From the NCBI GenBank assembly GCA_026707545.1, contig JAPOWR010000001.1:1329778-1393777 (forward strand): 64,000 nucleotides of DNA, read 5' to 3'. Positions 43,723 to 51,109 of this stretch are shown here, in pieces (position 1 is the stretch's first letter; each line of letters opens with the position of its first letter). Position numbers and translations under genes: made by a program. The notes below the pieces were generated by a model. The model had not been told where the DNA came from and searched no databases. It saw only the letters and a program-made list of their open reading frames with translations. This stretch comes from Acidobacteriota bacterium (lineage in GTDB: Bacteria; Acidobacteriota; Thermoanaerobaculia; Multivoradales; Multivoraceae).

Positions 43723-45129
43723 ATGGGCACGCACCGTTTCAGGCGGGGATTGAGCCTGCCCATCTCGGGCGCTCCGGAGCAGACGGTGGAGGACGCCGCG
43801 GCTCCCGGTACCGTGGCGATCAGCGCCGCCGACTACCCGGGTATGAAGCCGGCGATGCACGTGGCACCGGGCGATGCGGTGAGGCGCGGGCAGCTCCTGT
43901 TCGAGGATCGCAAGCAGCCCGGCGTGCGCTTCACCTCCCCCGCCGCGGGCACGGTGACCGCCGTGAACCGGGGCGCGAAGCGGGCCCTGATCTCGGTCGT
44001 CGTGCGGGTGGACGCCTCCGACCGGGCCAGCGCCGGCGCCCAGGCCGACTTCGCGGGCTACACGGGCCGCCACCCCAGCGCGCTCAGCCGCGAGGAGGTC
44101 GTGGCACTGCTGGTCGAGTCCGGCGACTGGACCGCCCTGCGGGCCCGTCCCTTCGGACGCACCGCGGCTCCCGGATCGACGCCGAAGTCGATCTTCGTGA
44201 CCGCGATGAGCAGCGAGCCCTTCGCTCCTGCCACCGACATGATCGCCGGCGGACGGGCCGGCGACCTGGAACGGGGCCTCGCCGCGCTGGCGCGGCTGAC
44301 GGACGGACCGGTGTACCTCTGCCGCGCACCCGGCACGCTCGCCGGCATCGAGACCAGCGGTTCGTTACGCGTCGAGGAGTTCAGGGGACCCCACCCGGCC
44401 GGCGCCGCGGGGCTGCACATTCACACCCTGGACCCGGTGGACCGCAACAAGCTGGTGTGGCAGATCGGGCTGCAGGACACGCTGGCGATCGGCCGCCTGT
44501 TCGCCACGGGTGAACCCGACGTCCAGCGCATCATTGCTCTGGGCGGTCCACCGGTGCAGAGGCCCAGGCTGCTGCGCACCCGGCTCGGCGCCGCGCTCGC
44601 CGACGTGACGAGGGGCGAGATCGGTACCGGTGCGGAAGCCGTCCCCGACGGTACCGTGCGGGTGATCACCGGCTCGCCGCTCAGCGGTCGCACGGCGATG
44701 GGCAAGGAGATGCCGGCCGATCTCCACGGCTACCTCGGCCGCTTTCACGACACCGTATCGGTGCTCGAGGACGACCACGGCCGCCACTTCCTGGGCTGGC
44801 TCAACCCCGGTTTCGGCGCCTTCTCCCGCGCCCGCGCCTTCGCTTCCTCGCTGCTGCCGCGCCGGTCGTTCGCGATGACCACGACCACGCACGGCTCGCC
44901 GCGCGCCATCGTGCCCATCGGCCTCTACGAGAGCGTCTTTCCCTGGGACCTGCAGCCGACCTTCCTGCTCAAGTCCCTGGTCGCCGGGGACATTGAGCGG
45001 GCCGAGGAACTCGGCTGCCTGGAACTGCTGGAGGAGGACCTGGCGCTCTGCACGTTCGTCTGCCCGGGCAAGACGGAGTATGGGCCGTACCTCCGCGACG
45101 CGCTCGAACTGATCGAGAAGGAAGGCTAG
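43723..45129 (+). CDS. nqrA: Na+-translocating NADH:quinone reductase subunit A
   Basis: 468 aa. N-terminus RRGLSLPISGAPEQ matches NqrA. First gene of the nqr operon. Confidence 0.9.
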   Translation: MGTHRFRRGLSLPISGAPEQTVEDAAAPGTVAISAADYPGMKPAMHVAPGDAVRRGQLLFEDRKQPGVRFTSPAAGTVTAVNRGAKRALISVVVRVDASDRASAGAQADFAGYTGRHPSALSREEVVALLVESGDWTALRARPFGRTAAPGSTPKSIFVTAMSSEPFAPATDMIAGGRAGDLERGLAALARLTDGPVYLCRAPGTLAGIETSGSLRVEEFRGPHPAGAAGLHIHTLDPVDRNKLVWQIGLQDTLAIGRLFATGEPDVQRIIALGGPPVQRPRLLRTRLGAALADVTRGEIGTGAEAVPDGTVRVITGSPLSGRTAMGKEMPADLHGYLGRFHDTVSVLEDDHGRHFLGWLNPGFGAFSRARAFASSLLPRRSFAMTTTTHGSPRAIVPIGLYESVFPWDLQPTFLLKSLVAGDIERAEELGCLELLEEDLALCTFVCPGKTEYGPYLRDALELIEKEG

Positions 45130-45135
45130 GGGCGA

Positions 45136-46421: not shown

Positions 46422-47201
46422 ATGGCAAACCGACAGGCCACCGGCTACACCCTCCTGTTCGCGACCGCGATCTGCATCGTGTGCGGGATCCTCGTGTCCT
46501 CCTTCGCGGTCAGCCTGGAGGAGCTCCAGGACGAGAACATCGCCCTCGACAAGCAGAAGCGGGTGCTGGAGGCCGTGGGCCTGCTCCAGCCCGGTGAGCC
46601 GATCGAAGAGGCCGAGGTCGCGGAGCGCTTCGCGCCGATCGAACCGGTGCTCATCGAGCTCACCTCGGGCGAGGCGGTGGACGGCGACACGGCGACCTTC
46701 GACCAGCAGCGCCGCGCCCGGGATCCCGCCACCAGCATCGAAGCCCCCGACAACCTGGCCAAGGTCAAGCGCATTCCCGATCAGTCCCTGCTGTACGAGG
46801 TGCGCGGCGACGGCGGCGAACTCGAAATGGTCGTGCTGCCGATCGAGGGTCTGGGACTCTGGGGAACCCTGTACGGCTTTCTGGCGCTCGACGCGGACAC
46901 GACGACCGTGCGCGGCATCACCTACTACCAGCACAAGGAGACGCCGGGCCTGGGCGGCGAGGTGGACAATCCGAGCTGGAAGGACAAGTGGCCCGGACGC
47001 AAGGCCTTCGATGACGACGGCGAGGTTCGCCTGGCCGTGATCAAGGGCTTTGCCGGGAACGCCGAGGAGGACCCCTACGAGGTCGACGGTCTCGCCGGCG
47101 CGACGATCACCAGCAACGGGGTAACGAACATGCTCGATTTCTGGCTCGGGGAGAACGGCTTCGAGCCCTACCTCAACCGGATCCGCGCGGAGGCCAACTG
47201 A
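46422..47201 (+). CDS. nqrC: Na+-NQR subunit C
   Basis: 259 aa. Single N-terminal TM, FMN-binding domain (SGATITSNG threonine attachment motif). Confidence 0.9.
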
Positions 47202-47827
47202 TGGCTGTCAAGAAGAGCGAAGCGGCGCTCGATCCCCTCTTCAACAATAATCCGATCGCGCTCCAGGTCCTAGGCATCTGCTCGGCGCTGGCGGTGACGA
47301 CGAAGATGGAGACCTCGGTCGTCATGTGCGCGGCCGTCATCGCCGTGCTCACCCTGTCGAACCTGACGATCAGCCTGCTCCGGCATCAGATCCCGAACAG
47401 CATCCGGATCATCGTCCAGTTGACCGTCATCGCATCGCTGGTCATCGTCACCGACCAGATCCTCAAGGCCTACGTGTTCGAGATCAGCAAGCAGCTCTCG
47501 GTGTTCGTCGGGCTGATCATCACGAACTGCATCATCATGGGGCGGGCGGAAGCCTTCGCGATGCAGAACCCGCCGTCCCTGGCCATCCTCGACGGCATCG
47601 GCAACGGCATCGGCTACAGCGCGATCCTGATGGTCACGGCGTTCCTGCGCGAGCTGTTCGGTTCCGGGAAGCTCTACGGCTACAGCGTTCTGCCCACGGT
47701 CTCGGAAGGAGGCTGGTACCTGCCGAACGGCCTGATGCTGCTGTCTCCCGCCGCCTTCTTCATCATCGGCGGATTGATCTGGGCGCTACGCGTGTACAAA
47801 CCCGCTCAAGTCGAGATGGACGGGTAA
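47201..47827 (+). CDS. nqrD: Na+-NQR subunit D
   Basis: 208 aa. NqrD/RnfE family, 6 TM. Confidence 0.9.
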
Positions 47828-47923
47828 GGAGGGACGCCATGCACAAGCGACGAAGCACTCCCCACGCGGCGCGTGTAGCCCTGCTCCTTGTTCAAGTCGA
47901 GATGGACGGCTAGGGAGGACGCC
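47807..47923. repeat. ~31-bp direct duplication of the nqrD 3' end plus Shine-Dalgarno (copy 1 at 47807..47838, copy 2 at 47893..47923), with a 54-bp spacer
   Basis: Two copies of CAAGTCGAGATGGACGG[G/C]TA[A]GGGAGGACGCC seen directly in the sequence. Copy 1 spans the nqrD stop; copy 2 lies immediately upstream of the nqrE ATG. Confidence 0.85.
47839..47913 (+). CDS. Candidate 24-aa micro-ORF MHKRRSTPHAARVALLLVQVEMDG between nqrD and nqrE
   Basis: ATG preceded by AAGGAGGGA at SD distance. Ends with the same QVEMDG-stop as NqrD. Not in the supplied ORF track as a separate entry. Translation unproven. Confidence 0.25.
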   Translation: MHKRRSTPHAARVALLLVQVEMDG

Positions 47924-47928
47924 GGACG

Positions 47929-48546
47929 ATGTTCGAGGACTACCTGAACCTGGCCGTGAAGGCCATCTTCATCGAGAACATGGCCCTGACCTTCTTCCTG
48001 GGCATGTGCTCCTTCCTGGCCGTGTCGAAGAAGGTCGAGACCGCGGTCGGCCTCGGCCTGGCGGTCATCTTCGTGCTCACCGTGACCGTGCCCGCGAACA
48101 ACCTGATCCAGACTTACCTCCTGAACGAGGGCGCTCTCGCCTGGATCAGCCCCGAGTTCGCCGGCGTCGACCTGACCTTCCTGAACCTGCTCTGCTTCAT
48201 CGGCACGATCGCGGCGATGGTCCAGCTCGTGGAAATGACGACCGACCGCTTCTTCCCCGCGCTGCACGCCACACTGGGCATCTTCCTGCCCCTGATCGCG
48301 GTGAACTGCGCCATCCTGGGGGGCTCCCTGTTCATGGTCGAACGGGACTACGACTTCGGGGAAAGCGTCGTCTTCGGCCTGGGCAACGGTATCGGCTGGT
48401 TCCTGGCCGTCGTCGCCCTGGCGTCCATCCGTGAGCGCCTGCGCTACAGCAACGTGCCCCACGGTCTGCGCGGCCTGGGCATGACCTTCGTCATCACCGG
48501 ACTGATGGCGTTCGGCTTCATGGCTTTCGGGGGCATCCAGTTGTGA
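47929..48546 (+). CDS. nqrE: Na+-NQR subunit E
   Basis: 205 aa. NqrE/RnfA family, 6 TM. Confidence 0.9.
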
Positions 48547-49760: not shown

Positions 49761-49808
49761 GCCTGGCGATGCGCTGCGGGCGCGGGGCGTTGGTGGCACC
49801 CGCCAGGC

Positions 49809-49971
49809 GCGGGTCCGGGGGGAGGGGTCCCAGGTGCCGTTCGCGCTTGGTCGGAAGATGTAAGGGGGTGCGCTCACTGCACTCCGCTCGCTTCGGTCAG
49901 GCACCGGTTGCCGTGATGGCGCCGGCCGTCGCTCGCTCCGAGCCACCTGGGACCCCTCCCCCCGGACCCGC
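49809..49971. repeat. Palindromic repetitive element, copy 1 (28-bp perfect inverted-repeat arms at 49809..49836 and 49944..49971, 107-nt loop)
   Basis: Arms GCGGGTCCGGGGGGAGGGGTCCCAGGTG / CACCTGGGACCCCTCCCCCCGGACCCGC are exact reverse complements. Sits between nqrF and apbE. Confidence 0.8.
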
Positions 49972-50050
49972 ACCTGGCTGGACGTCGTCGAGCTGTCGCA
50001 TCGCACCGTCGGCACCGAAGTCGTCTCGGTCGAAGCGGGGATGGCGACCA

Positions 50051-51109
50051 GGCTGGCCGGTGTTGGCAGTCCTCGCTGGCCTCACGATCGGCTGTGGGCA
50101 GGCATCTGAGGAGCTCGTGCTGCAGGGGCCGACGATGGGCACCTACTATCGGGTGCGCGCCATTGCGGACTCGGGTGATCGCGAGACGATTCGGGCTCTG
50201 GTCCAGCAACGGTTGGATGCGGTTGACCGCAGGATGTCGACCTACCGGGACGACTCGGAGATCTCTCGCTTCAATCGGCTCGCGGCCGGCGAGTCCTTCG
50301 TGTTCGCAGAGGAAACCTGGGCAGTCCTGGAACTCGCCTGGCGGGTGCGCGAGGAGAGCAACGGTGCGTTCGACCCAACAGTGGGGCCCCTCGTCGACGC
50401 CTGGGGCTTCGGTGCGCCCGGACGCGGTGCGGAGCCGACACCTCCTCTCGATGATCGCCTAGTGGAGCTACGTCGGGCGGTGGGCTCGATCGAGCTGGCA
50501 TCTGAGGGCCACCGAGTTCTCAAGCTCGAAGACGGAGCAGCTCTCGACTTATCCGCTATCGCCAAGGGTTGGGCAGTCGATAGCGTTTCCGAGGCTCTGC
50601 TCAAAGCCGGTTACACCAATCACCTCGTAGAGGTCGGCGGCGAGGTGCGCACCACCGGAAGTAGCCCAGCGGGCGACCCGTGGCGCATCGCGATTGAACG
50701 GCCACCCGTTCGAGTGACCGATCCCGCGCCAACAAGCGCCCCGGCAACCACAACGGCGGAGGCCCCAAAAGCCGGGCTCCAGAGGGTTCTCCTCTTCACC
50801 GACGGATCCCTGGCGACCTCGGGCGACTACCGAAACTACTGGGAGCGTGATGGCGTCCGCTACTCCCACACGATCGACCCCCGCACGGGACGGCCCGTTG
50901 AACACGCCCTTGCCTCGACCAGCGTGTTCCACACCAGCTGCGCCGTGGCCGACGCCTACGCCACCGCCCTGATGGTCCTCGGCCCCGAGGACGGCCTGGA
51001 GTGGGCGGACGAGAACGACATCGCCGCCCTGCTCCTTGTCTACCGCGAGGACTCACTCGAAGAACTCCCGAGCCGCGCTTTTCGCAACCGGTTCGGACCC
51101 GCCGAGTAG
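50051..51109 (+). CDS. apbE: FAD:protein FMN transferase ApbE (flavin-trafficking, Na+-NQR maturation)
   Basis: ApbE-family conservation over ~350 aa. Putative lipobox LAGLTIGC. In-frame start is GTG 50051 or TTG 50054. An out-of-frame ATG at 50032 would supply a better signal peptide. Confidence 0.8.
   Translation, partial: GWPVLAVLAGLTIGCGQASEELVLQGPTMGTYYRVRAIADSGDRETIRALVQQRLDAVDRRMSTYRDDSEISRFNRLAAGESFVFAEETWAVLELAWRVREESNGAFDPTVGPLVDAWGFGAPGRGAEPTPPLDDRLVELRRAVGSIELASEGHRVLKLEDGAALDLSAIAKGWAVDSVSEALLKAGYTNHLVEVGGEVRTTGSSPAGDPWRIAIERPPVRVTDPAPTSAPATTTAEAPKAGLQRVLLFTDGSLATSGDYRNYWERDGVRYSHTIDPRTGRPVEHALASTSVFHTSCAVADAYATALMVLGPEDGLEWADENDIAALLLVYREDSLEELPSRAFRNRFGPAE

Follow-up and report, generated by a model that had tools for sequence, protein, structure and literature searches.

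Mycobacterial interspersed repetitive units (MIRUs) are said to insert at start codons and to carry an internal ORF that is coupled to the gene at -4 nt, with minimal effect on expression (Supply et al. 1997, summarised in PMC12548453). The same review recognises short ORFs that serve to "deliver" ribosomes to a downstream gene (PMC12548453). Distance is important for termination-reinitiation, as experiments in E. coli and Haloferax found a steep decay with distance and a near abolition of the process by a spacer of ~20 nt (PMC10666635).

We analysed the junction between nqrD and nqrE in a sponge-associated acidobacterium (Thermoanaerobaculia/'Candidatus Multivorans' group), within a 64-kb stretch of DNA that we refer to as the window. 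At this site, an ancestral 15-nt junction gained 86 nt, comprising a second copy of the gene boundary and 53-54 nt of unrelated filler. We consider it probable that the insertion is a young boundary duplication around filler that persists as a neutral scar. It contains no CRISPR-like array, known RNA or gene, and it looks like a tolerated scar rather than an evolved regulatory element. The feature is therefore best regarded as an ordinary structural polymorphism with a neat anatomy.

Anatomy of the nqrD-nqrE junction

The operon has the canonical order nqrA-B-C-D-E-F-apbE. Both genes flanking the insertion belong to curated NCBIfam equivalog families: NqrD (208 aa; 47201..47827, + strand) exceeded the cut-offs of NF006777/TIGR01939, with 331.9 bits against NF006777 (cut-off 235), and NqrE (205 aa; 47929..48546, + strand) reached 314.4 bits against TIGR01940 (cut-off 247.55). 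NqrC and NqrF likewise exceeded their curated NCBIfam equivalog cut-offs. The operon junctions measure 6, 26, -1, 101, and -4 nt, with the D-E junction being the only one expanded. An overlap of nqrC and nqrD, which an earlier note on this DNA had reported, amounts to 1 nt, and nqrE and nqrF also overlap, by 4 nt.

The expanded junction is flanked by two copies of a direct repeat. The last codons of nqrD are CAA GTC GAG ATG GAC GGG TAA, encoding the terminal QVEMDG and a stop at 47825-47827. Repeat copy 1, TCAAGTCGAGATGGACGGGTAAGGAGGGACGCC (33 nt; 47806-47838, + strand), consists of these last six codons, the stop TAA, and the SD-like AAGGAGGG; a GGAGGG read from the sequence at 47828..47833 (+ strand) would act as the SD. 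Repeat copy 2, TCAAGTCGAGATGGACGGCTAGGGAGGACGCC (32 nt; 47892-47923, + strand), comprises a relic nqrD tail, a relic stop (TAG, 47911-47913), and the native nqrE SD (GGAGG, 47914-47918). Copy 2 is followed by GGACG and then the nqrE ATG, which begins 15 nt past the relic stop.

Start to start, the copies are 86 nt apart. They share an exact 18-nt core, TCAAGTCGAGATGGACGG, at 47806 and 47892, which continues as GTAAGGAGGGACGCC in copy 1 and as CTAGGGAGGACGCC in copy 2. Three differences separate them: GGG in copy 1 for GGC in copy 2, TAA for TAG, and one extra G. BLAST aligned the pair over 33 columns at 90.9% identity, and a repeat finder returned 27 nt at 93% identity. Even when up to two mismatches were tolerated, the 17-mer CAAGTCGAGATGGACGG turned up at just two places in the 64-kb window, against a shuffle expectation of 0.01, and none of 100 shuffles contained two or more matches. 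Among direct repeats no more than 300 nt apart in the whole window, this pair had the top identity but was not the longest. No comparable case was present elsewhere in the 64-kb window, so there was no sign of a genome-wide tendency. The repeat at the nqrD end and nqrE start, 86 nt apart, had been proposed in the earlier note and is confirmed by the sequence, the repeat search, and BLAST; that copy 1 holds the nqrD stop and copy 2 adjoins the nqrE ATG can be read directly from the sequence. Its further description of a 24-codon ORF with a good SD, ending in the C-terminal hexapeptide of NqrD, agrees with the translation and coordinates that we obtained.

This micro-ORF, MHKRRSTPHAARVALLLVQVEMDG* (24 codons; 47839..47913, + strand), is in the same frame as nqrE, and its last six codons are the repeated nqrD tail. 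Its ATG lies 6 nt past the GGAGG core (47828-47832) and 11 nt past the nqrD stop. Its own stop precedes the nqrE ATG by 15 nt, which is the ancestral distance between the nqrD stop and nqrE. Given a GGAGG at 6-nt spacing, the micro-ORF is probably translated. Its peptide matched no NCBIfam model, a search of 5.8 billion protein clusters yielded none with shared words, and across about 180 related nqr loci the micro-ORF was present in no relative. The micro-ORF is not a gene, and annotation should not call one.

Between the copies lies the filler (47839..47891, + strand), which is 53 nt long, or 54 nt counting T47892. The repeated part accounts for only 32-33 of the 86 nt, and the middle 53-54 nt is no copy of local sequence. 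We found no other copy of the filler on either strand of the 64-kb window, in 100 related loci, in JGI metagenomes (searched with a 24-mer), or in viral contigs (searched with two patterns). The best partial matches, a 14-mer at 51026 and 15/16 positions at 44070-44055, were at chance level by a rough composition-based estimate. Matches between the spacer and upstream sequence were significant only within the repeat itself, and the spacer had no significant match to nqrE (z = -0.4).

These observations bear on the suggestion of a local tandem duplication with a unit of SD plus gene end. The boundary was indeed duplicated, but the 86-nt period does not represent two copies of a unit. A simple tandem duplication requires similarity along the whole unit, and we rejected it given that only 32-33 of 86 nt are repeated while the rest is at background. 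We also rejected the filler as a hypermutated local copy, as purine/pyrimidine and strong/weak recoding gave no signal. Decay is a poor explanation because, at the rate of an nqrE-tail relic in sister lineages (1-1.3 times the four-fold-site rate; see below), a local copy dating from after the divergence of the nearest relative should still be at least ~90% identical, whereas the middle is at background. Hence, either the filler never was a local copy or the insertion would be much older and imported, and we rank the second possibility lower.

Searches for a function of the spacer at the RNA or regulatory level were uniformly negative. The folded spacer RNA was no more stable than shuffles (z = -0.11), no Rfam match to the spacer had E < 0.2, and no promoter-like or terminator-like site was found within it. 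A 13-nt palindrome, CACGCGGCGCGTG, occurred at chance frequency. With no Rfam family, stable structure, promoter, or terminator, we rejected the spacer as an RNA or regulatory element.

Occurrence, polarity and age of the insertion

The identical 101-nt spacer is present in three public assemblies, namely ENA ERZ23500023 and the Logan assemblies of ERR5004244 and ERR5005031, each of which matched the window with 0 mismatches over 3.6-9.4 kb. These assemblies represent at least two sequencing runs and two assemblers or pipelines. The NqrA allele of the strain was carried by 11 contigs. Several samples contained the strain, in which the insertion appears to be fixed, and this implies that the insertion is at least not strongly deleterious.

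We surveyed nqrD-nqrE spacers at 100 loci from genomes and 79 from metagenomes. Across these ~180 related loci the spacers ranged from -47 to 25 nt, with the exception of four distant taxa having spacers of 184 nt (L083), 87 nt (L097), 70 nt (L095), and 38 nt (L068). The relatives belong to the Acidobacteriota (Holophagales / Thermoanaerobaculia / 'Candidatus Multivorans'), and the insertion was absent from all ~35 sampled members of the clade. Proteins exactly matching NqrD and NqrE were found on dozens of public sponge-metagenome contigs, nearly all with a spacer of 12-15 nt. The survey thus bears out the earlier note's impression that a spacer of ~100 nt is unusual for nqr operons. Comparing related nqrD-nqrE junctions, as the note had proposed, showed that no close relative has the spacer and that the micro-ORF is not conserved, both of which support its suggestion that the duplication may simply be a scar.

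The nearest uninserted relatives (L003, L007, L017, L020, and L022; e.g., GCA_009836625) have identical NqrD and NqrE proteins and read ...GCTCAAGTCGAGATGGACGGCTAGGGAGGACGCCGGACGATG, which is copy 2 and everything downstream, unchanged. The single junction corresponds base for base to copy 2 plus GGACG-ATG in L003, L007, L017, L020, L014, and L015. Relatives without the insertion carry the copy-2 version at the end of nqrD. Accordingly, copy 2 with its SD is ancestral and the 86 nt were added upstream.

At four-fold sites, nqrD diverged by 5% and nqrE by 11% from the nearest uninserted relatives. Over 60 nt to either side, the flanks of the insertion are identical to those of the relatives, save two changes inside copy 1. 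The last six codons of nqrD displayed no special synonymous conservation in the clade, and nucleotide-level constraint on the nqrD tail is therefore not supported as an explanation for the identical 18-mer. The 18/18 identity between copies instead indicates youth. Overall, the insertion looks recent, derived, and private to one strain. Counting against this, three changes within ~15 nt of copy 1 are more than the identical flanks predict.

Other expanded junctions in nqr operons

A second duplication occurs between nqrE and nqrF in the same clade. The L002, L009/L019, L023, and L025 loci have a 59-nt copy of the nqrE tail between the two genes, derived from a 62-nt tandem duplication bounded by TGA microhomology and a subsequent loss of 3 nt. 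This relic is recognisable over its whole length at ~70-85% identity to its source and contains no filler. Its divergence between lineages is 1-1.3 times the four-fold-site rate. A 20-codon ORF (ATGA...GTGA) in the relic bridges the genes and is open in all four haplotypes. Substitutions between L002 and L009 (one synonymous and two non-synonymous) look neutral. In L023, the relic seems to combine the L025 and L009 types as a mosaic. By eye, relic substitutions were not adenine-specific, and we rejected a diversity-generating retroelement with template and variable repeats. The nqrE/nqrF duplication is independent of the nqrD/nqrE insertion and offers a modest parallel to it. Between nqrF and apbE, the same operon also has a long hairpin, which is an inserted element that varies among strains.

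Two of the distant taxa with long nqrD-nqrE spacers have ORFs that span them, which is likewise a modest parallel. In L083, a 58-codon ORF starts 8 nt past the nqrD stop and its TAG abuts the nqrE ATG. In L097, a 27-codon ORF begins 4 nt past the nqrD stop and ends in a TGA directly adjoining the nqrE ATG. An N-terminal match between the 58-aa product of the L083 ORF and the micro-ORF peptide (BLASTP E = 0.007, shuffle p = 0.002) was rejected as homology, because equally good matches are common among off-frame Arg/Ser/Pro-rich translations of GC-rich loci and the protein database holds the L083 ORF as a singleton.

Among the collected loci, 8 of 42 nqr junctions with spacers of 60-300 nt were bridged by an ORF relative to 3.7 expected from shuffles, and of the four spacers above 60 nt at the nqrD-nqrE junction in any taxon, three were bridged end to end, although the bridging criteria were set after the data had been seen and spacers made of coding relics are open by inheritance. 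These counts provide hints that continuous translation across expanded junctions may be favoured. A broader generalization would hold that expanded junctions in operons of membrane complexes, whether boundary-duplicated or inserted, are systematically bridged by throw-away ribosome-relay ORFs. The micro-ORF in the window, the nqrE-nqrF relic ORF, and the ORFs of L083 and L097 would then be independent instances of one selected solution. We regard this generalization as improbable; if true, it would extend a MIRU-like principle beyond mycobacteria.

Explanations for the insertion and comparison with known systems

A young boundary duplication would have arisen in a single repair or replication accident that doubled ~32 nt of the boundary. 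One candidate is a staggered break whose two sides were both filled in, the DNA between them being captured or untemplated, and another is microhomology-mediated template switching. We infer a single step, and that no source of the filler was found in the searched data counts against it. The downstream copy keeps the native nqrE initiation region entire, while the upstream copy supplies the last codons and stop of nqrD. The overlapping functions of one 31-nt segment are now on separate copies, and both genes remain intact. The differences in copy 1 (GGC to GGG, TAG to TAA, and the extra G) are all compatible with its role as the nqrD end.

Under a young duplication, the micro-ORF would be a by-product: by chance the filler begins with an ATG that follows the upstream SD, and the frame runs into the relic nqrD stop. 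Placing a stop at the former position of the nqrD stop would restore the ancestral termination context for nqrE, along with any termination-dependent initiation that nqrE had, and would help to account for the harmlessness of the insertion. If the 18-nt repeats recombined with each other, 86 nt would be removed and the ancestral junction regenerated exactly. The changes in copy 1 keep the stop and an SD, AAGGAGGG, of at least native strength, and could reflect selection for translation of the micro-ORF.

Such selection is central to an alternative that we deem unlikely, in which the micro-ORF is a relay leader. Ribosomes leaving nqrD would re-initiate on the micro-ORF and be delivered to the nqrE start, thereby preserving coupling and the NqrD:NqrE ratio across a spacer otherwise expected to break it. 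The SD is strong and optimally spaced, the micro-ORF stop is at the ancestral 15 nt from the nqrE ATG, spacers of ~20 nt nearly abolish reinitiation in tested systems (PMC10666635), and short ORFs that deliver ribosomes have been recognised previously (PMC12548453). Other junctions point in the same direction, as the long spacers of L083 and L097 are bridged by ORFs with stops abutting the nqrE ATG, bridged junctions number 8 versus 3.7 expected, and the nqrE-nqrF relic ORF is open in every haplotype. However, the micro-ORF exists in one haplotype and in no close relative. An ATG in two of the three frames would meet a stop before nqrE anyway, making a harmless layout likely by chance, and nqrE keeps an intact SD that could support initiation of its own. 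The statistics on bridging are modest and were obtained post hoc, with coding-relic spacers being open by inheritance, and the nqrE-nqrF relic substitutions look neutral. Hence, coupling of nqrE to nqrD through the micro-ORF is plausible in that it fits the geometry, but it is without comparative support at the nqrD/nqrE locus.

It is quite unlikely that the spacer is instead an old, decayed 86-nt tandem duplication, made up of a relic nqrE head and nqrD tail, that persisted in an unsampled lineage before its import by homologous recombination in the conserved flanks. This history could account for a weak, roughly colinear match of CGCGGCGCGTGTA to CGCTACGCGTGTA at a spacing of 81, and for the 3' part of copy 1 having diverged further than the flanks. 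Duplications can persist and recombine, as illustrated by the nqrE-nqrF relic and its mosaic-like form in L023. Without gaps, the filler reached at best 25/54 identical positions against the nqrD tail and likewise against the nqrE head (p ~0.02 each), but these p-values derive from composition-naive shuffles that ignore codon periodicity. Local alignment of the filler to the 3' end of nqrD gave only a 13-nt patch that was not significant (p = 0.13-0.2). Similarity between the copies falls from 18/18 to ~11/14 and then abruptly to background, a sharp boundary rather than a graded one. An old origin also needs divergence that predates the whole clade together with absence from its ~35 sampled members. 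Furthermore, the non-coding 18-mer of copy 2 should have decayed, given that the nqrD tail is without special synonymous constraint.

We give similarly little credence to the footprint of a mobile or site-specific element. Candidates include an att-like remnant with an 18-nt core and partly similar arms at the nqrD 3' end, an insertion sequence with a long target duplication that lost its interior, a MIRU-like intercistronic element, and off-target integration of the Cas1-Cas2 type that duplicated ~30 nt. Any of these might leave a unique insert between direct repeats of 32-33 nt whose perfect core gives way to homeologous sequence. The nqrF-apbE hairpin is another strain-variable element in this operon, and insertion at start codons together with coupling of an internal ORF has been described for MIRUs (PMC12548453). 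Yet no second copy of the filler turned up in the 64-kb window, the 185 loci, JGI metagenomes, or viral contigs. The terminal inverted repeats of the insert are at most 5 nt, and the genes called in the neighbourhood of nqr included no integrase or transposase. Two events, integration followed by interior loss, are needed under both the att-remnant and the insertion-sequence model. Integration of the CRISPR type typically produces a duplication of ~28-37 nt around an insert of 30-40 nt, in a genome that has a CRISPR-Cas system. Set against these commonly quoted lengths, the repeat fits at 32-33 nt, but the 53-nt insert is long for a CRISPR spacer, and the 64-kb window has no CRISPR-like array.

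An assembly artefact, which the earlier note had considered, is effectively excluded with a negligible chance of being correct: although mis-joins at repeats do occur in metagenome assemblies and this repeat is a short one, three assemblies agree on an identical spacer, its unique filler must exist in the reads, and the Logan contigs break ~300 nt upstream inside nqrD, away from the repeat.

On its own, the young boundary duplication is of small significance, but it provides a clean natural example of a tight operon junction absorbing an insertion. The tail of nqrD doubles as the ribosome-binding region of nqrE, and duplicating the boundary gave each function its own copy. Considered with the second junction duplication and the ORF-bridged spacers of distant taxa, it suggests that where coupled translation sets the subunit ratios of an operon, insertions may be buffered by short ORFs.

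Among known systems, the locus resembles target-site duplications and staggered-break fill-in in having direct repeats of the target flanking unrelated DNA. Its duplication of 32-33 nt greatly exceeds that of ordinary transposons, and neither transposon ends nor an enzyme could be identified. As with delivery uORFs and synthetic bicistronic designs (PMC12548453), a short SD-led ORF ends before the gene and the SD of the gene lies in the 3' end of the ORF. Those arrangements are conserved or engineered with overlapping stop and start, whereas here the ORF is predicted in one strain and leaves a 15-nt gap.

The locus shares with MIRUs a short (40-100 nt) extra sequence between co-directional operon genes and a small ORF on the same strand that could pass ribosomes on to the next gene, leaving expression little affected. 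In contrast to MIRUs, which are dispersed, multi-copy, and often form variable tandem arrays, it was found as one copy across the window, the 185 loci, JGI metagenomes, and viral contigs. The ORF of MIRUs overlaps the downstream start by 4 nt, while the gaps here are 11 and 15 nt, and MIRUs end in element sequence, while the ends here duplicate the local gene boundary. The nqrE/nqrF duplication differs in being a plain tandem without filler that is found in several species-level lineages, whereas the nqrD/nqrE insertion has filler and is confined to one strain. Nonetheless, the two belong to the same operon and clade, and both have a copy of the upstream gene's tail in the spacer, a bridging ORF, and a downstream copy that keeps the initiation region of the downstream gene.

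A second junction duplication in sister lineages

In sister lineages, the spacer between nqrE and nqrF holds a diverged 59-nt copy of the nqrE tail. We located this duplication in five related nqr loci (L002:4255-4317, L009:4255-4317, L019:3615-3677, L023:4255-4317, and L025:4254-4316). It is an independent event within the same operon as the 86-nt insertion at the nqrD/nqrE boundary. The relic creates a 20-codon ORF whose start (ATGA) overlaps the nqrE stop and whose end (GTGA) overlaps the nqrF start. The encoded peptides form a decay series running from MTRGTGLMAFGLTPFGGIQS (L025) to MTTSTGPAAFGSMVFEGARP (L002), and the relic has diverged at approximately the rate of four-fold sites.

Two distant Acidobacteriota have long spacers at the nqrD-nqrE junction itself (L083:3616-3799 and L097:3625-3711), each spanned in its entirety by a small ORF of 58 codons in L083 and 27 codons in L097. 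Both ORFs start 4-8 nt past the nqrD stop, and the stop codon of each adjoins the nqrE ATG. No homologue of the L083 spacer ORF was found in the protein database searched.

Length variation and a hairpin elsewhere in the operon

The nqrF-apbE spacer carries a long imperfect palindrome (window 49761-50045) with arms of 38 nt each at 49799-49836 and 49944-49981, which are 94.7% complementary. RNA folding of this region gave -181 kcal/mol (z = -5.8), and no second copy of the arm sequence was present elsewhere in the window. Across strains sharing identical NqrD and NqrE, the nqrF-apbE spacer is anywhere between 8 and about 380 nt long, and two related loci (L004 and L026) lack a portion of it. 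One possible identity for the palindrome is a hairpin element of the MITE or REP type; another is an RNA processing site or a terminator.

NqrA is 468 aa in the window and was called at 480 aa in most relatives. At about position 44623, the nqrA of the window lacks 33 nt (11 codons) that are present in L022 and L004, and this difference is a further strain-specific, in-frame indel of the operon.

Contig ends and internal similarities

Logan contigs (public assemblies of runs ERR5004244 and ERR5005031 carrying the same inserted spacer) begin at window positions 47525 and 47527 for the two runs, and another stops at about 47554, all inside nqrD. These ends suggest a branch of the assembly graph arising from co-occurring strains, and the breaks (47525-47554) lie away from the nqrD/nqrE insertion.

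The nqrA tail and stop, TCGAGAAGGAAGGCTAGGG (window 45113-45131), matched the nqrD tail and stop, TCGAGATGGACGGCTAGGG, at 17 of 19 positions. Because the BLAST E-value was about 1, this likeness probably reflects chance and a common SD context. Within the window, an 89-nt stretch of nqrD (47268-47356) also shares 75% DNA identity with nqrE (47996-48084), which is explained by the known paralogy of these two genes within the Rnf-Nqr family.
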